Virus record (IMG/VR): IMGVR_UViG_2698536335_000001
Location: 1-26,512 of that record
Strand: one strand, 5' to 3'
Length of the DNA: 26,512 nt
Source: a virus
Taxonomy: Duplodnaviria > Heunggongvirae > Uroviricota > Caudoviricetes
The translations under genes and the position numbers were made by a program. Positions 1,461 to 26,512 of the stretch are shown here, in pieces. Within the stretch, counting starts at the first letter, position 1, and each line of letters opens with the position of its first letter. The notes below the pieces were generated by a model. The model was not told the origin of the DNA and ran no database searches. It saw only the letters and a program-made list of their open reading frames with translations.

Positions 1461-3725
1461 TCAGATCCTCTGAGTACCAGCAAGAATGACATCAAAAGCA
1501 GCGTAGCTTAACGTTGCCGGGTTTATGACTGCCCCTGATGCATCCTTAACTTTTATAATCACTGAAGTACCCCCATCCAAGACGGCCATGTATGAGTGTA
1601 TTGTGTCAACTGTAGGGCTCGCTATTACGTGGGTTTTAGTATACCAGTTCTTCTTTATTGGTATCCTGATGCAAGGGACTGCTGTATCAATAACTGGTGT
1701 TCCAAACACACTACTTCCATATGATGTAGATAACACGCCTGCCGTGAAAGTGAAACTGCACAGATCCATTCCAACAGGATTTACTTGTGAAGAGTTGCTT
1801 CCATAAGCGCTTCCTGCACCGACAGATTTAAAGTTGGTTACAGCTTCAGGGTTTCTAAGTGTTAGAATGTGAGGAACGCTTGTAGTATCCTCTTCTCTTA
1901 GCATTGCTATAGCTGGCACAGCCGAATCATTCATTAATGCCATACCCTGCGCTTCTTCTCCATATACAACGCTCCAAAAATCAACTAATTCCCCAGTGTA
2001 TTTGAACACATATATACCGTTATCGGAAAGGAAGTGGATAAATCCACCGTGCGCAACCATACCTTGAGGATTTCCATCAAATGAAGCGACAGGATACTCA
2101 AAGGAACTAATTAGTTGCTTGGAATTAATATCAATAATTGAGAAAAATTCATTTGGTGAACCAACTTTCCCAGTTGCAAGAACAAGCAAATCATGCTCAT
2201 TATCGATGCTGATGGTTGCTCCCATGCCGTACTGAGTTAAATCCCATGTTTCTGTAATTGATTTTCCATCAGTAGCAAGGATGTAAACTTCAGCATCAAA
2301 TTCTGAACCACCAGAGCTTACATATACTCTACCATCTAATTTACGCCATGCAGCGGAACTTGCATGTTTTAAAGGCAGTGTAACCTGACCATATGAGTTA
2401 TCAACGCTACCGTCTCTTTCATATCTAAACACTTGTCCGTTAACACCACCAATATCATATCCAACTATGAATTTTCCAATGGAGAAATCATACGCTAATC
2501 CTTGTGGTCTTTTTTGAGTACCAGTTGTTGGGACGGAAGTGATAGTAAATTCATAAAATCTTCTAAAAACATCGTTATCACCAAACGCCCCCCCTCTTCC
2601 TGGTGCAAGAATGCTATTTGCTCTTGGGTTGCTGTAATTTCCAGCCATTATAACTTTAGCACCCGAAACAGAAGAAATACCGCTAGTTCCGTCTGGTACA
2701 TATATGACACCCGAGGCAAGCATTGTTGGACCAGAAAGCGTTAATGGAAGTGAATATTTTTTTGATGCTGACAGCGCAGATTCTATAGCGTGAGTATCAT
2801 CATCTATACCATTTCTTTTTGCTCCGAAAAACTCAGGAGCTACATCATTGCACTCTCTCTTCCATCTATTACCACCAGATGTAACTATTGTTACGCCGTC
2901 ATCATCAATAGTTGTTGAATCAGTATTGTCGTAATAAAAGTAACCACCTCCAGTACCAGATCCTAATGTATGCTCTAAAACAAATATTCTTTGCTGTGTA
3001 TTTGTTGGTTCTATATTGCGTAAATTAGAAATGGAAGCACAATTGCCAATAAGTTTTAAGCCATCACTTGCTGCTAGCTGAATCATTACATCGGATGCAG
3101 ATCCAGACTGTGGAAGGACCATAATAGGATTACCATTGTCATCCATCGCTACCACTTTGTTTTTACGATTCTCAGCATCAGGCAAACTTGGTATTGGCTC
3201 AGGCGTTCTAAGAGTACGACCTAGATTTGTATTAGCAAGTTTATCGACATAATTTTTAGTCGCTGCATCCTGAGGGCGCGAAGGATCACGCAGGTTTCTG
3301 ATGTAGTTGTTAATAGCGTCATAATAATTCGCCACAAAAGATGGCTTACGAAGAGCAAGTGAAAACCAACTTCTTACCTGCTGGATCAGCATCGTTAGCT
3401 TATCAAACGCGTCCTCGTGCACCTCAGCAAAAAACTTACCCTGGTTTCTAAGATCTGTTTCCTGAGTAACCGGTAGTTCTCGCAATATGGAAATCTGATA
3501 ACCATTAGCCAGTGCCTTCGACAGAATTACATTGCCACCGTTATACCCTCCCGCACCAGTGACTGTGTAATCAGTATCAAGATCCAGCACAGTGATATTC
3601 TCGTCAAGGTCAATCACCTGCACTACTAAATCAGATTTATTGAAAACCCTAAAGGTATAAGGGAATGATGTCGTAACGCCGTTACCGGTGTATTCGTTGT
3701 GGTTAACTTCGGTTGAGACCGTCAT
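1461..3725 (-). CDS. tailspike / tail fibre protein, 754 aa
   Basis: N-terminal ~150 aa resemble the T7 gp17-type tail-attachment domain (by recall); long Gly/Ser/Thr/Asn-rich C-terminal part typical of beta-helical receptor-binding domains; GGAGA RBS; last gene of the virion operon. Confidence 0.8.
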   Translation of the reverse strand: MTVSTEVNHNEYTGNGVTTSFPYTFRVFNKSDLVVQVIDLDENITVLDLDTDYTVTGAGGYNGGNVILSKALANGYQISILRELPVTQETDLRNQGKFFAEVHEDAFDKLTMLIQQVRSWFSLALRKPSFVANYYDAINNYIRNLRDPSRPQDAATKNYVDKLANTNLGRTLRTPEPIPSLPDAENRKNKVVAMDDNGNPIMVLPQSGSASDVMIQLAASDGLKLIGNCASISNLRNIEPTNTQQRIFVLEHTLGSGTGGGYFYYDNTDSTTIDDDGVTIVTSGGNRWKRECNDVAPEFFGAKRNGIDDDTHAIESALSASKKYSLPLTLSGPTMLASGVIYVPDGTSGISSVSGAKVIMAGNYSNPRANSILAPGRGGAFGDNDVFRRFYEFTITSVPTTGTQKRPQGLAYDFSIGKFIVGYDIGGVNGQVFRYERDGSVDNSYGQVTLPLKHASSAAWRKLDGRVYVSSGGSEFDAEVYILATDGKSITETWDLTQYGMGATISIDNEHDLLVLATGKVGSPNEFFSIIDINSKQLISSFEYPVASFDGNPQGMVAHGGFIHFLSDNGIYVFKYTGELVDFWSVVYGEEAQGMALMNDSAVPAIAMLREEDTTSVPHILTLRNPEAVTNFKSVGAGSAYGSNSSQVNPVGMDLCSFTFTAGVLSTSYGSSVFGTPVIDTAVPCIRIPIKKNWYTKTHVIASPTVDTIHSYMAVLDGGTSVIIKVKDASGAVINPATLSYAAFDVILAGTQRI

Positions 3726-20782: not shown

Positions 20783-20859
20783 GTGGCATTAGCTCAGTTG
20801 GACAGAGCAACCGCCTTCTAAGCGGTTGGTCGCAGGTTCGAATCCTGCATGCCACGCCA
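20783..20859 (+). tRNA. tRNA-Arg, anticodon TCT (reads AGA), 77 nt with encoded CCA
   Basis: Hand-folded cloverleaf: acceptor GTGGCAT/ATGCCAC, D arm GCTC/GAGC, anticodon stem ACCGC/GCGGT with loop CTTCTAA, T arm GCAGG-TTCGAAT-CCTGC; similar to but distinct from E. coli argU as I recall it. Confidence 0.9.
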
Positions 20860-21524: not shown

Positions 21525-23000
21525 TTAAGCATAGGGATCGTAATCTGTGATGGCCTTGCCTTGCTGGTTCTGCTGCCCGGGAATTCGCAGACGCTTAGAC
21601 ACAGGGAACGCAAACGTCAGCAGTAGCGCATCGCCTTTACCCGGAGAACGCCCAAGCCGCTCTTTGATATCTTCCTTCGGTTCGATAACGATTTTACCGT
21701 CCACTCGAACTTTGTACTCTGCCGCCGACAGGTCGTCCGCTGTTTCCTGGTCATCCAGCATGCCGCCCAGCCTCAGCCATGTCTTACATGAGTTGAACAT
21801 CTCCCCACGCTTGTTAAGCATCTGCGGGTCAGTGGACGCACCGCCGAACGGAACAAGTTGCCATGTACGTCCCCAGCCATCACCGATTGACTTCAAACCG
21901 GTTCCGTAACCGAAGTCGATGAACACCGCGTCAGCCTGGTACTGGTCTTCAAAGTCAGCGATACGCTTCGCCATAATCAGATCGTCGGTGGTCTTGTTGC
22001 CGGTCCACAGCACCTTACTGTGCAGCCCCTGCCGCAGGTATATCACCGCGTCATCAACACCGGAGTATGCAGGGTCAACGCCGATTATCACCGGAGCATG
22101 TGCCACCTGCGCAGCAGTTACCACCCGTTTCATTGCCTCGTCAGTAAGACCGGTAGGGATAAACTGCAATTCAGATGCATCAGGGAATATGCCGCGCACA
22201 CGGATTTTAACGAAGTCGCTGTCTTCCCCGTAGTCATCAACCCATTTCTGCAACTGCTGTTTGTTAGTGCCTTCCACCGTCCGGCTGTCAATCTGCGCAG
22301 TTTTCCAGCGGTGTTTATACTTGCGGAAACATTCACGGAATCGCCCGGTATTACGCGTAGGGTTTCCGAACGCCACCCAAATAATCTCAGTGTCTTCGTC
22401 CGTAAGCGCACCCTCGGCAACTTCCCACACCAGATCCGCAATGTTCGACGCTTCATCAAACACCACGATGATGCGTTTGCGCTCGTTGTGTAGTCCGGCG
22501 AATGCCTCAGTGTTGTGCTCAGACCAGGGGATTGCGTCAGCCCGCCACCGCTTGTCGTGCCCAGGATCATTGCTGTACATCGCGGTAGCGGTACAGGTAA
22601 ACCAGTCTTTCGTGATAGCAAGGTTCGACCACTTGATAATTTCCGGCCAAGTCTTCGTTCGTAGCTGGTTGTCGGTGTTGGCGGTCACCACGACCTTACA
22701 ATCCTCGCAAGTGGACATGCCCCAGTTGATCAGCATTGAGATGAATGCGGATTTACCAATACCGTGACCAGAAGCACGTGCCAGCATAAGCGGCTGATAT
22801 CGCGTCTCTGGATTCTGCAGGTGATCACGTATCTCTCGGAACGCATCGGCCTGCCACTGACGTGGACCGGTGGCATGTGCCAGTTCAGTACCCTCTTCCC
22901 CCCACGGGAACGCATAGAGGGCATAGCCAAGCGGATCGTGAGTGAACCCTGCAATATCCTCGATTAACTGCTCTTCAGGAGATAACACTGTATCTGTCAC
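21525..23000 (-). CDS. terminase large subunit, 491 aa
   Basis: Walker A-like ASGHGIGKS and Walker B-like IIVVFDEAS in the N-terminal ATPase region, acidic nuclease-like C-terminal half; start overlaps the small-subunit stop. Confidence 0.85.
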   Translation of the reverse strand: MTDTVLSPEEQLIEDIAGFTHDPLGYALYAFPWGEEGTELAHATGPRQWQADAFREIRDHLQNPETRYQPLMLARASGHGIGKSAFISMLINWGMSTCEDCKVVVTANTDNQLRTKTWPEIIKWSNLAITKDWFTCTATAMYSNDPGHDKRWRADAIPWSEHNTEAFAGLHNERKRIIVVFDEASNIADLVWEVAEGALTDEDTEIIWVAFGNPTRNTGRFRECFRKYKHRWKTAQIDSRTVEGTNKQQLQKWVDDYGEDSDFVKIRVRGIFPDASELQFIPTGLTDEAMKRVVTAAQVAHAPVIIGVDPAYSGVDDAVIYLRQGLHSKVLWTGNKTTDDLIMAKRIADFEDQYQADAVFIDFGYGTGLKSIGDGWGRTWQLVPFGGASTDPQMLNKRGEMFNSCKTWLRLGGMLDDQETADDLSAAEYKVRVDGKIVIEPKEDIKERLGRSPGKGDALLLTFAFPVSKRLRIPGQQNQQGKAITDYDPYA

Positions 23001-23593
23001 TGATTACCATCCTGACGTTCTTTGAGTCGCTTCCTGGCTGCTGCTATGCGATCAGCAATTGTCACATTCACATTAACATCCAGGCGTTCTTTGAATGCGT
23101 TGACGTCGACGTGCTTACCAATCAGTTCGAGGTTCTTCACCTTGTCAGGCCATTTAATTTTTTTGAGGATTGTCTCTATCGAATCCTCGTTCATGTTCAT
23201 GATGGTCGATGACAGATCAAAGCCGCTAAGCGTAGTGCGCCAGATTTTCGGCCACTCGCGGATTGGCTTAAGGCTCCCATCGTCGTTGAGGATGTCGATC
23301 ACGTCCATCTGGTCGATCTCCACCAGGCGCATGAGAACGTAATCAGCACTGACGCGCATTCGTTTGTTGCGCTCCTCCATCAACTCGGCAATCCGTTTTT
23401 GAATGCGTTCATCGCGCATCATGACACTGGCTTTAACTGCCGCTGTATTTGGGGAGAATCCTGCATTAATCGCTGCCTGAGTCTGGTTTTCAGGCGTTTT
23501 GATGTATGACTGGCAATAAGCCTCCTGCATTGCTGTTAGTGGCTTAAATTGCGTTGATTTGCGTTTATAGGTTTTAGGTTCAGCAGGCATCAT
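22997..23593 (-). CDS. terminase small subunit, ~198 aa
   Basis: Immediately upstream of and overlapping the large subunit; helix-rich basic protein; ATG at 23593 (track start 23671 is a TTG extension running through a terminator and tandem repeat). Confidence 0.65.
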   Translation of the reverse strand: MMPAEPKTYKRKSTQFKPLTAMQEAYCQSYIKTPENQTQAAINAGFSPNTAAVKASVMMRDERIQKRIAELMEERNKRMRVSADYVLMRLVEIDQMDVIDILNDDGSLKPIREWPKIWRTTLSGFDLSSTIMNMNEDSIETILKKIKWPDKVKNLELIGKHVDVNAFKERLDVNVNVTIADRIAAARKRLKERQDGNQ

Positions 23594-23596
23594 AAC

Positions 23597-23632
23597 CACC
23601 GTGGTAATAGTTACCGTTGTGGTAATAGTACC
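23597..23632. repeat. tandem direct repeat, two copies of ~18 bp, core GTGGTAATAGT at 23601-23611 and 23619-23629
   Basis: Read directly: accgtggtaatagttaccgttgtggtaatagtacc, between the terminator and the terminase small-subunit start. Confidence 0.5.
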
Positions 23633-23662
23633 ATGCAAAATAAAGCCGCCATAGTTGGCGGC
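23631..23662 (-). terminator. rho-independent terminator upstream of the terminase genes
   Basis: gccgcca-tagt-tggcggc (23645-23662) followed on the minus strand by TTTATTTTG; 6 nt after the stop of gene 23668-23901. Confidence 0.6.
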
Positions 23663-23667
23663 AGTAT

Positions 23668-23901
23668 TCAAAGTCCATCAAATTCATCGTAAAAACTCTC
23701 GTCAAGATACCCTTCCCATTTACCGCGAATGAAAATTACATCCTCGCCGCAAGGGTGCTGACTGTCGATAACTATATCCCTCCTGGCGCAACCATACTTA
23801 TGCATGAGAAATTTAACCTCTTTCGGAAAATTTGCTGAATTATCTCTCATATCTTCAAGGTCGTAGCGTATTTTTGGCATAACACCTTCGTGACATGTCA
23901 C
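23668..23901 (-). CDS. hypothetical protein, 70-77 aa
   Basis: GTG at 23901 overlaps the upstream TGA (GTGA) or ATG at 23880; no recognisable motif. Confidence 0.5.
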   Translation of the reverse strand: MTCHEGVMPKIRYDLEDMRDNSANFPKEVKFLMHKYGCARRDIVIDSQHPCGEDVIFIRGKWEGYLDESFYDEFDGL

Positions 23902-24245
23902 ACTATTAATTTCGTTTCATGCCAGCCTTTAGTCACCCAGCATTGCGAGTCACCATTACACGGGCATGAATTAACGGGAACTCTCTCGCCGCACTTACCG
24001 CAAAGTTTTCTGCTGATCGATTTTATACGCCCGCGCACACGTGCATCATCCTGGCGGATCAGCAGCGCGATGTACTCGGCCATTTCATAGGGATCGCGAC
24101 CAGGGCGCCGGGCGGCGCAGTTCCGCGCCAGCATTTCCTGCTCCTGCTTATCCAGCATCAGTTCAATTTTGCGCTCACCGGCGGCGGACTGCCGAGCGCG
24201 CTGCGCGGCTTTGCGTTCTGCGGGGGATTTAGCCACGAATCGCAC
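23898..24245 (-). CDS. hypothetical protein with C-terminal Cys-rich zinc-ribbon-like motif (CGKCGERVPVNSCPCNGDSQC); start uncertain
   Basis: Basic N-terminal half, five Cys in 21 residues near the C-terminus; track start is GTG. Confidence 0.5.
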   Translation of the reverse strand: MRFVAKSPAERKAAQRARQSAAGERKIELMLDKQEQEMLARNCAARRPGRDPYEMAEYIALLIRQDDARVRGRIKSISRKLCGKCGERVPVNSCPCNGDSQCWVTKGWHETKLIV

Positions 24246-24351
24246 TCCACGCCAGATTGATTAATGACTCCCAGGCAATATAAACCCGGATACCAGCAGC
24301 CAGGCCGAAACCAATCACCATGGCATAAAGCAGAGCGTTGCACTTGTTCAT
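24229..24351 (-). CDS. small hydrophobic protein, 40 aa (MNKCNALLYAMVIGFGLAAGIRVYIAWESLINLAWSAIRG); absent from the ORF track
   Basis: ATG shares a base with the upstream TGA (TGATG) and is preceded by AGGAGG; one hydrophobic helix; overlaps the uncertain start of 23898-24245. Confidence 0.3.
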   Translation of the reverse strand: MNKCNALLYAMVIGFGLAAGIRVYIAWESLINLAWSAIRG

Positions 24352-25085
24352 CACTTCACCTCCTGCGGCGGTTCCGGTAGCGGCATCCAGTGAGTTGCTT
24401 GCTCAATACCATTACCCGGCTTAATCGTTGCATCTCCGCGCCGAAAGGTGCTTCCGGTATAGCGTGCGGAGCATATTAGCGGTTCAACCAGAGAGCTATC
24501 GAAATTCACCGAAATAAGCACGTTCTGGCCCTTTTCAGGCATTCGATCACTACAGCTTATCCAACTATCCGGAGTTCCCGGAGAGTTGCCATTTACATCG
24601 AAGTTTGGCTCTGCGTCCTGAACCAAGAGGATGTAACCATTCTTGGCTGTATCAAGTTCTAACGCTTCGGTGACGGTGCCGAAATAGCGATTACCTAAAT
24701 CAGCATCACAAGTGCTTATATCAATGGAAACTTCCATGCCTTCGATTAATTCTGGCAAGTTGTAAGTTTGGCTTACAGGTTGGCTACCCTGAAGCATGGC
24801 GGCGCGGTGACACCAGATAATCCAGCCAAGCGCCATATCCCATGCCATGTATTCTCTATCGCCATTTTTTGCCCTACGGCGATCTACAGATTCCCCGAAA
24901 CGCTTCTCCATAAATAATTCATAGGCTGCTCGTTCATCCGATACTGCTGCCAGTGATGCCAGTGCAATTTTTAATGCGGTAAGCATGTTGTTTTGATCTT
25001 CATCGAGTCCGAACGGTATTTCATCCCGTGCTGACTCAATGCTGGTAATCGTGTTCTGTAACCATTCTTTGGTAAGAGTATTCAT
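24351..25085 (-). CDS. nin-region-type protein with DUF551-like C-terminus (…HWMPLPEPPQEVK), 244 aa
   Basis: C-terminal W-x-P-L-P-E-P-P motif recalled from DUF551 proteins of lambdoid phages; N-terminal ~15 aa shared with gene 25281-25748. Confidence 0.65.
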   Translation of the reverse strand: MNTLTKEWLQNTITSIESARDEIPFGLDEDQNNMLTALKIALASLAAVSDERAAYELFMEKRFGESVDRRRAKNGDREYMAWDMALGWIIWCHRAAMLQGSQPVSQTYNLPELIEGMEVSIDISTCDADLGNRYFGTVTEALELDTAKNGYILLVQDAEPNFDVNGNSPGTPDSWISCSDRMPEKGQNVLISVNFDSSLVEPLICSARYTGSTFRRGDATIKPGNGIEQATHWMPLPEPPQEVK

Positions 25086-25087
25086 AA

Positions 25088-25279
25088 CTATTTCACCTTA
25101 ATCTCAACATTTCGCAGCTTTAGCTCTACTGGCAAGTCTGACTTTCCTGTTAATGCTAATGCGAGATTTTCAGGAGTAATGAGAGCTGTTATTGTTTTCC
25201 CCATCGCCAGACGAATAATCATTCGTATCTCGCGATCGTCACATGCTCCCGGTCGAACAATTGATATTTGTCCGTTCAT
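25088..25279 (-). CDS. hypothetical protein, 63 aa
   Basis: ATG at 25279 with AAAGGAGAG RBS, one nt after the upstream stop; track start 25300 is a TTG extension. Confidence 0.5.
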   Translation of the reverse strand: MNGQISIVRPGACDDREIRMIIRLAMGKTITALITPENLALALTGKSDLPVELKLRNVEIKVK

Positions 25280-25280
25280 C

Positions 25281-25748
25281 TCACTCTCCTTTGATGCCAA
25301 TGTTTACAGCCTGACAAGCCTCTTTGAGCACCCAGTCAACAGCGTCTTTCCATGCTCCGGTTTCGACTGGCGGATTTTCACTCTTAACCTGTTCATAGAA
25401 GCGCACCGCTTTAATCAATCCTTCGGGTGTCAGTGGCACAGGCTGGGCCGTGAATAACGCCTGAATTTCATAGTTCGGCCTGTCGTTGCAATTCTCTTTT
25501 GTCGGTACATATTTCCAGTCACCAACCCACGGCTTCTCCTGAAAGTTCGTAACGCCTTTTCTCACGTAGCGATATCGCCATGTCACCGGTTCGGCTTCCA
25601 GCGATACCAGCGCGACTTTAAATGCGGTAAGTACGTTTTTAACCACATCGATTTTAAATACTATTTCATCACATACAAACGATTTATCGTCTACTACCGT
25701 TTCAATTCCGGTAATCGTGTTTTGTAGCCATTTGGTTAATTCAGCCAT
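25281..25748 (-). CDS. hypothetical protein, paralogous N-terminus to 24351-25085, 155 aa
   Basis: MAELTKWLQNTITGIE versus MNTLTKEWLQNTITSIE at the N-termini; C-terminal parts differ. Confidence 0.65.
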   Translation of the reverse strand: MAELTKWLQNTITGIETVVDDKSFVCDEIVFKIDVVKNVLTAFKVALVSLEAEPVTWRYRYVRKGVTNFQEKPWVGDWKYVPTKENCNDRPNYEIQALFTAQPVPLTPEGLIKAVRFYEQVKSENPPVETGAWKDAVDWVLKEACQAVNIGIKGE

Positions 25749-25894
25749 TTTTCATTACCGCCCTTTCGGGCGGTCTCCTGATGTTCTGAGGGTGCAGGAA
25801 TCCCTCCGGTTAAGGATTAAATTTTATTTACAGAACTGAATTTAATTATTCAGATATACGTATCTGTAACCTTACGAACCTACTCACTGGATGC
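25749..25894. promoter_or_regulatory. AT-rich intergenic region with inverted repeats: CTGAAT-N6-ATTCAG (25836-25853) and hairpin ccgccc-tttc-gggcgg (25758-25773)
   Basis: Read directly; lies between the methyltransferase stop and the start of the next minus-strand gene. Confidence 0.3.
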
Positions 25895-26368
25895 CTATTT
25901 CATAAAAATAATCCAGTGGGTTTTATCGTTTTTTCCTGTTCGTTGACCGATAACAGGTTTTCTGTCGGTCAGTACCAATATCTGGCGAACAGGTATTTGC
26001 GTTTCATTCCATTTAAAAATCAGAACTCCGGATGGACGCAACACACGAAAGGCTTCTTTAAATCCCTGCCGCAAATCATCACGCCAGGTATCTTTATTCA
26101 GCCGTCCATATTTCTTTCCCATCCAGGCGTTATCACCAACACGCTCAAGATGCGGAGGGTCGAATATAACCATCGAAAAAGATGCGTCTGCAAATGGTAG
26201 TGCACGAAAATCAGCTATCAGATCAGGACTGATAATCAGGCGTCGTCCATCACACAATGTGTGCTCTTCCTTTCTGATATCGCTAAATATCGCCCGGTCG
26301 TCATTCTTATCGAACCAGAACATGCGACTGCCACAGCACATGTCGAGGATTGCTGCATGTCCAGTCAC
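25895..26368 (-). CDS. small phage-type DNA methyltransferase (Dam-like N6-adenine class), ~157 aa
   Basis: Motif I-like ILDMCCGS followed by the catalytic-type VIFDPPH (DPPY-like) motif; GTG start at 26368 with AAAGGAGG RBS; the track ATG at 26401 has no RBS. Confidence 0.65.
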   Translation of the reverse strand: MTGHAAILDMCCGSRMFWFDKNDDRAIFSDIRKEEHTLCDGRRLIISPDLIADFRALPFADASFSMVIFDPPHLERVGDNAWMGKKYGRLNKDTWRDDLRQGFKEAFRVLRPSGVLIFKWNETQIPVRQILVLTDRKPVIGQRTGKNDKTHWIIFMK

Positions 26369-26512
26369 TGGCTGCCTCCTTTGCGAAGCCGTTCCGCCCA
26401 TTCTTCAAGGGATTTCTCTGCATATTCACCGGACAGGCCATCAATCGGATGCGATTCATTAGCTAACTCTTCTTTTGCTGACAGAATCATGCGTGTAACG
26501 TCGAAAACTTCA
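26365..26512 (-). CDS. 3-prime end of a hypothetical ORF continuing beyond the window (…ELANESHPIDGLSGEYAEKSLEEWAERLRKGGSQ)
   Basis: Open frame from the window edge to TGA at 26365-26367, overlapping the methyltransferase GTG start. Confidence 0.4.
   Translation of the reverse strand, partial: EVFDVTRMILSAKEELANESHPIDGLSGEYAEKSLEEWAERLRKGGSQ

Follow-up and report, generated by a model that had tools for sequence, protein, structure and literature searches.

In the viral sequence IMGVR_UViG_2698536335_000001, which we analysed over its whole length of 26,512 nt (the window; all coordinates count from its first letter), three closely packed genes lie on the minus strand. They are p155 (25281-25748), an open reading frame (ORF) of 155 amino acids (aa), a 63-aa gene (25088-25279; phrog_1222, E 1e-40) and p244 (24351-25085), an ORF of 244 aa. 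The sequence places the start of the 63-aa gene 1 nt past the stop codon of p155, and the start of p244 2 nt past the stop codon of the 63-aa gene. The original prediction for this locus had held that p155 and p244 open with an almost identical segment of about 15 residues, that one of them ends in a DUF551-type motif, and that module shuffling in a nin region had brought this about. We found that the two proteins share an N-terminal module of about 50 residues, the EaA-type head, which is predicted to fold into a two-helix hairpin. This sharing is real but ordinary phage gene mosaicism. Both genes are members of a family of early accessory proteins, hyper-mosaic in make-up, which is found in enterobacterial temperate phages and which also includes lambda Ea22, P22-like EaA and the CPS-53 proteins YfdS and YfdT.

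Domain layout of p155 and p244

Both ORFs were found on the minus strand with the coordinates and the N-terminal strings that had been quoted for them, TKEWLQNTITSIE at residues 5-17 of p244 and TKWLQNTITGIE at residues 5-16 of p155. BLASTP aligned residues 1-52 of p155 with residues 1-47 of p244 at 51% identity (E 9e-10). The pairwise alignment that had been proposed as a check is hence significant over about 50 residues and not confined to a few; the sharing itself stood, while the idea of a short, nearly identical start had to give way to a module about 50 residues long. Within it, the conserved islands TKEWLQNTIT.IE and N.LTA.K.AL.SL flank a variable loop with a 6-residue indel, and at the DNA level the two heads are about 75% identical over the aligned stretch. 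The EaA-type head, characterised by the motif MxTITKEWLQ...IPFGLD...ALASLEAEP at residues 1-50, is recognised in both proteins. A hidden Markov model (HMM) of the head, run against the six-frame translation of the window, returned exactly two copies, one in p244 (E 8e-32) and one in p155 (E 3e-27). The observed head sharing is confirmed, and it is stronger than first stated.

The head of p244 (residues 1-47; 24945..25085, minus strand, as are all modules described below) is the canonical EaA-type module, recognised by the head HMM, by structure prediction with AlphaFold2 and by its match to EaA of phage BTP1. That of p155 (residues 1-52; 25593..25748), recognised by BLASTP, the head HMM and AlphaFold2, is a variant with a 6-residue insertion and with the linker ALVSLEAEP at its end. 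AlphaFold2 predicts helices at residues 6-22 and 29-63 of p244, with block means of the predicted local distance difference test (pLDDT) of 86-96 for residues 1-40 and of 87 for residues 41-50; the same helices are predicted in p155 at residues 2-19 and 27-51, with low pLDDT. Across 141 representatives of the head, W8, L9, I13, F25, L35, A37, A41, L42, A43, S44 and L45 are conserved at 94-100%, as are the polar positions K6, E17, R20 and D21. Slightly lower values were obtained for T5 (92%), Q10 (90%), E46 (90%) and N33 (84%), and position 40 is I or L in 98%. Most of the circumference of helix 2 consists of apolar or small residues.

Behind its head, p155 continues with a middle module (residues 53-100, PVTWRYRYV...LFTAQPVP; 25449..25592), supported by AlphaFold2 and the body search, in which beta strands are predicted at residues 57-63, 74-76 and 93-99 with low confidence. 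It ends in a C-terminal helical tail (residues 101-155, PEGLIKAVRFYEQVK...NIGIKGE; 25284..25448). The tail was recognised by its match to the C-terminus of a 198-aa protein of phage PAS61 (80% identity, E 3e-33), whose own N-terminus (VSKIDYQALRE...) is Ea22-like by reading. Pfam gave no match for p155, and DUF551 is not present in it.

In p244, the head is followed by a YfdT-like helical module (residues 48-100, DERAAYELFMEKRFG...WCHRAAMLQG; 24786..24944), with residues 37-97 matching residues 30-90 of K-12 YfdT at 74% identity (E 5e-31) and with predicted helices at residues 69-74 and 77-99. Comparison of this module with the p155 tail gave a BLASTP E value of 0.022 and an hhalign probability of 4.5%, and we claim no homology between the two. 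Next comes a middle module (residues 101-170; 24576..24785) with the linker GNSPGTPDSW at its end; it recurs in other proteins of the family, and the pLDDT is below 50 across residues 99-170. Finally, residues 171-244 (24354..24575) form the DUF551 domain, a small beta domain ending in HWMPLPEPPQEVK, which is also the C-terminal end of the protein. Pfam places DUF551 (PF04448) at residues 174-241 with 77.7 bits against a cut-off of 22 (E 1.3e-21), so the DUF551-type ending anticipated for one of the two proteins was indeed there. Judged by these matches, p244 unites a YfdT-like module and a DUF551 domain in one chain. Neither p155 nor p244 matches the Ea22 family PF13935 at E<=0.1 (p155 against lambda Ea22 gave E 7.7), and searches of NCBIfam and of the PDB sequences returned no match for either protein.

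Modules strung on short conserved linkers

The head has neither a Pfam nor an NCBIfam model. A 50-position profile of it, searched against 1.84 billion representative proteins, matched at least 826 protein clusters at E<=1e-3 and 574 at E<=1e-10. Among the 150 matches listed, the head nearly always occupies residues 1-50, in proteins of 52-364 aa. A head-only search of a word-indexed protein database gave matches that were all at most 104 aa long, and the diversity of tails was taken from the exhaustive search of representatives. Single-linkage clustering of whole tails chained most of them, through their common linkers, into one cluster of 95, and per-module clustering was used instead. Clustering the 40 residues behind the head in 130 representatives gave at least 38 groups, so that looking for the head on other tails in related phages, as had been suggested, yielded at least 38 following modules. 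A Pfam scan of 135 proteins (133 representatives plus p155 and p244) found DUF551 in 28 and DUF550 in 4, the rest being without a Pfam domain. Using tblastn with the consensus head, we retrieved the N-termini of the EaA/Eaa1 genes of the P22-like phages BTP1, L, ST64T and Emek, together with further matches in phi80, N15, HK140, ST64B and some Erwinia and Klebsiella phages. The suspected module shuffling is therefore borne out on a scale far above the initial guess, with the head on at least 826 clusters and dozens of tails, and with each body behind several heads. The head as a distinct and very widespread module outside the Pfam and NCBIfam models, and the exact linker breakpoints reported below, appear not to have been described before; neither would surprise a phage genomicist.

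As a side observation, the 65-aa protein P0001, which occurs on at least 1000 contigs, consists of the head only: it is identical to p155 over residues 1-51 and continues with VLMILCRSAMLSQN, which resembles a CRAAMLQ linker. It seems to be a widespread derivative that arose by deletion or fusion.

The modules of the family are strung together via short conserved linkers, namely ALASLEAEPVAW, LYTAPPAP, CRAAMLQG, GNSPV.PDGW and a terminal PQQEVK. Of the 141 representatives, 56 contain a motif like LYTAPPAP, 47 one like CRAAMLQG, 27 one like NSPV.PDGW and 45 a terminal PQQE-like motif. The combinations are manifold. The head precedes a YfdT-like module and DUF551 in P0197, a different module and the same DUF551 in P0182, other modules and the p244 middle module in P0172, and a different beta module with the p155 tail in P0079; in P0069 the p244 head is combined with DUF550 and DUF551, and P0143 also holds the p244 middle module. 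The view from the body is the same. The p155 body (residues ~48-155, that is the middle module and the tail) is present in 1453 proteins, and the best 111 of these display 13 head clusters, the EaA-type head accounting for only 8 of the 111. The heads found on this body include YfdT-type heads, several MTTITKE.../MTTITRE... types and PF13935 Ead/Ea22 N-termini with a coiled coil. All of them join the body at the linker ...ALASLEAEPVAW, where the junction reads ALASLEAEP[VM]AWRY. Between the conserved MxTITKE start and the ALASLEAEP linker lies a replaceable N-terminal cassette, of which the EaA-type head is one allele.

The breakpoints are sharp in the DNA. The p155 gene and the gene of P0209 in locus L006 show essentially the same sequence from the linker through to the stop codon, but upstream of the linker no alignment between them is possible; in L006, the p155 body sits behind a YfdT-type head. 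The window p244, the 233-aa gene of PAS61 and gp27 of phage mEp460 have in common the end of the upstream gene, their first 21 nt (which encode MNTITKE) and the whole sequence from ATTGCACTGGCATC on, and differ in the head cores between them; mEp460 gp27 carries a p155-type head, with its insertion, on the p244 body. The p244 head itself recurs identically in a 299-aa protein of L006 (L006 4628-5527). This p244 homologue contains a 55-residue insert that is flanked by two copies of the SPV.PDG linker, which shows the manner in which modules are inserted. The linker DNA has a mean identity of 75% over 33 nt, and a 17-nt core is common to several genes. Head types differed between the p155 and p244 positions in the other loci examined, L001, L002, L006, L007, L008 and L009. 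Because neighbours elsewhere usually carry different heads, the matching heads in the window are one outcome of independent assortment, and the adjacent shared head is not a conserved functional arrangement.

We regard a mosaic cassette origin of the shared head as very probable. In-frame recombination at the MxTITKE start and at the linker would reassort heads and bodies among phages, and the occurrence of the same head type on p155 and p244 would result from this reassortment, in which case the two proteins need not cooperate. We infer this recombination, and the linkers as its sites, from the observed breakpoints. The exchange would probably rely on short homology, such as phage Rad52-like recombinases can use. 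Such recombinases drive mosaicism via relaxed homologous recombination (PMC3945230), and ERF or RecT genes lie within the same operon in L007 and L009. A further-reaching and rather speculative possibility is that the linker-coding stretches (~17-30 nt, e.g. CTGGCATCGCTGGAAGC) could serve as portable sites for phage Rad52-like recombinases, allowing linker-guided, combinatorial in-frame reassortment of heads, middle modules and binding domains across lambdoid, P22-like and phiV10-like phages. If true, it would provide a fast-diversifying host-targeting repertoire, a phage counterpart of polymorphic-toxin-style modularity.

Genomic setting of the cassette

The window belongs to a phiV10-like phage of E. 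coli. Between positions 3046 and 24235, it is about 97% identical to the phiV10-like podoviruses (genus Uetakevirus), namely the O157 typing phages 9 and 10, phiV10 and PAS61. The terminase genes terS (22997-23671) and terL (21525-23000) are located downstream of p155 and p244, and the equivalent stretch of PAS61, L008 and similar relatives spans the region from the replication genes to the terminase. The label nin region fits this position between the replication genes and the terminase. It does not fit by homology, which leads instead to the exo-xis/ea cassette of Ea22, a small ORF and EaA-DUF551, and to the yfdS-yfdT position of CPS-53. Indeed, the order of an ead/Ea22-like gene, the 63-aa gene and a DUF551/EaA gene is found in the exo-xis/ea region of mEp460, JLK-2012, 1720a-02 and Stx1a phages, and related orders with other middle genes occur in prophages with P22-like early genes (L007 and L009) and in the P22-like phage BTP1. 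The 63-aa gene is kept in mEp460, O121 and L006, and a 121-aa HNH-like gene stands in its place in L007-L009.

Positions 24344-26512 (2169 nt) recur with 99.8% identity in a CPS-53/mEp460-like prophage that E. coli O121 RM8352 carries. The order in the O121 prophage is yfdP-yfdQ-yfdR and, further on, methyltransferase, p155, 63-aa gene, p244 and a 3'-5' exonuclease; the left breakpoint of the block lies 7 nt beyond the stop codon of p244. Among 5426 complete E. coli genomes, 71 contain the block at a coverage of at least 80%. The methyltransferase, p155, the 63-aa gene and p244 thus make up an accessory block that matches a lambdoid CPS-53/mEp460-like prophage of E. coli O121/O157 at 99.8% identity, in contrast to the phiV10-like structural region. 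This points to a recent cassette exchange between unrelated phage types. Within the portion of the early region covered by the window, which ends at 26512, no homologues of yfdQ and yfdR can be seen.

Several neighbouring elements were recorded alongside. A 40-aa hydrophobic ORF (24229-24351, minus strand; phrog_5525, E 8e-30), whose start overlaps the stop codon of p244 (TGATG), probably encodes a small membrane protein. On the other side of the cassette lies a 168-aa SAM (S-adenosylmethionine)-dependent DNA methyltransferase (phrog_954; 25895-26401, minus strand). Its start is overlapped by a short ORF (26365-26490, minus strand) that corresponds to the C-terminus of the PAS61 Eae protein and has an upstream stop codon inside the window; this Eae-like ORF may be the remnant of a further recombination junction. 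In the 146-nt AT-rich spacer between the methyltransferase and p155 (25749-25894; whole-spacer fold z = -2.3), a GC-rich hairpin, ACCGCCC-GAAA-GGGCGGT (25757..25774, minus strand), sits 8 nt upstream of the p155 ATG. It has GGAG directly 5' and no U-run, is kept in the minimum-free-energy and centroid folds, and could be a hairpin-bridged ribosome-binding site or an RNA-stability element. NCBIfam and PADLOC scans gave nothing for the neighbouring small ORFs scanned, and the PADLOC anti-phage defence models had no match at E<=0.01 among six proteins of the region. Among the structural genes, a tRNA-Arg gene (anticodon tct; 20783-20859, plus strand) may be the cause of unexpected megablast matches to Synechococcus phage records.

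The modular make-up of these proteins also leaves its mark on public annotation. In the O121 genome (L004 6008-7405, equivalent to window 24351-25748), RefSeq/PGAP (the Prokaryotic Genome Annotation Pipeline) splits the intact 244-aa ORF into two 'incomplete' DUF551 pseudogene pieces, and p155 is begun at an internal GTG (V35), which leaves 121 aa and cuts off the head. Homology-based annotation goes astray on mosaic proteins, and modularity explains such pipeline errors, be they pseudogene calls or wrong starts. The definition of the head on its at least 826 clusters, together with the positions of the module-exchange linkers, provides domain boundaries for constructs.

Role of the head and relation to known systems

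For the function of the head we lean, with some reserve and by analogy, to a self-association or scaffold module, because the head interchanges with the Ea22 N-terminus and coiled coil at the same junction and because helix 2 of the predicted fold is apolar almost all round. The Tudor/SH3-like DUF551, the YfdT-like helices and other variable binding modules at the C-terminus would then be presented by the head to host targets, as in tetrameric Ea22. The original prediction had instead seen in it a common partner-binding head with different effector tails; such a head would dock onto one host or phage protein and bring the tails to the same place. The strong conservation of the head across unrelated tails, many polar positions included, speaks for such docking, as does its fusion in P22-like EaA to an enzyme domain, DUF550, a MazG-like dATP/dGTP pyrophosphohydrolase. 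However, the p155 body stands behind at least 13 unrelated heads, the Ea22 coiled coil among them, so that the function of the body cannot depend on one common partner. Moreover, no such partner is known, and neither PADLOC nor the PDB sequences gave a match. We consider this docking role possible but doubtful.

The two remaining explanations concern the pairing of the heads within the window. Hetero-oligomerisation of p155 and p244 via their matching heads, in one complex that includes the 63-aa protein, would suit the close packing of the three genes, the 99.8% conservation of the block in 71 complete E. coli genomes and the interchangeability of CPS-53 yfdS and yfdT in a replication-inhibition assay with yfdQ and yfdR (PMC4776307). 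It is nevertheless unlikely. The differing head types at these positions in L001, L002 and L006-L009, and the exchange of the middle gene for an HNH-like gene at some loci, mean that the matching heads are not a conserved feature. Recent tandem duplication in this phage, followed by divergence of the tails, might be suggested by two close genes on the same strand with an N-terminus in common, but it is highly improbable: protein identity between the heads is just 51% and DNA identity about 75%, and the tails have no convincing mutual homology. We rejected it on the nearer head copies found elsewhere (the identical head of the L006 299-aa protein and the head of mEp460 gp27) and on the clean DNA breakpoint in L006, where the p155 body has its YfdT-type head.

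Taken as a whole, a mosaic cassette combined with a scaffold role of the head is the best explanation of the data, and we hold it to be reasonably likely. Four points weigh against it. The AlphaFold2 model of p155 is of low confidence (pLDDT 54), and fold searches gave weak matches only. The many invariant polar residues of the head (T5, K6, Q10, E17, R20, D21, N33 and S44) would suit a specific partner-binding surface equally well. Finally, the conservation of the linker DNA could follow just from amino-acid conservation and codon bias.

Accessory genes of the exo-xis/'ea' region affect the lysis-lysogeny decision and the induction of Shiga-toxin prophages, and the mechanism is known for few of them. 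One of the known systems that come closest is P22-like EaA, as encoded by BTP1 eaA (Lederbergvirus), phage L eaA-1 and ST64T eaa1. The BTP1 EaA head matches residues 1-47 of p244 at 57% identity (E 2e-14), and BTP1 EaA residues 1-98 match the p155 head and middle module at 35% identity (E 1e-9), with the same linker and beta module. The GNSPV.PDW linker is also present in these EaA proteins, and eaA belongs to the early-left 'ea' region, where an ead/Ea22-like gene precedes it two genes upstream. In contrast to p244, BTP1 EaA carries DUF550 and other modules and is without the YfdT-like and DUF551 modules. Literature searches on EaA and DUF550 found nothing relevant.

Ea22 of lambda and Stx phages (PF13935) follows a like logic of an N-terminal oligomerising part, a flexible link and an exchangeable C-terminal domain. 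It is tetrameric via an N-terminal segment and a coiled coil, to which a variable, swappable C-terminal domain is flexibly attached; its mosaic structure and the portability of DUF551 have already been published (PMC10834534), and Ea22 favours lysogeny (PMC10834534; PMC7093339). One Stx Ea22 variant bears DUF551, as p244 does. Additionally, p155 sits at the ea22 position of the cassette, and its body is fused to PF13935 N-termini in P0227, P0280, P0298 and P0324. The EaA-type head differs from Ea22 in being a short hairpin and not a long coiled coil, and in having no PF13935 match.

The third relative is the yfdS/yfdT pair of CPS-53. When present in multicopy, yfdQ and yfdR inhibit the initiation of replication in combination with either yfdS or yfdT, YfdR binds DnaA, and multicopy suppression of hda-185 with yfdQ and yfdR is known only for the K-12 proteins YfdS and YfdT (PMC4776307). 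The YfdT head is shorter and of another type, YfdT lacks the middle and DUF551 modules, and a direct comparison of p244 with YfdS was not significant (E 0.08). The literature counts YfdS among the DUF551 proteins, to which Pfam assigns p244, and in the O121 prophage with the identical cassette p155 and p244 occupy the yfdS/yfdT position downstream of yfdP-yfdQ-yfdR. In summary, p155 and p244 are further members of the known mosaic Ea22/EaA/YfdS-YfdT accessory proteins, and through this kinship p244 is linked to the sole functional lead in the family, the part played by YfdS and YfdT in DnaA-dependent inhibition of replication initiation.

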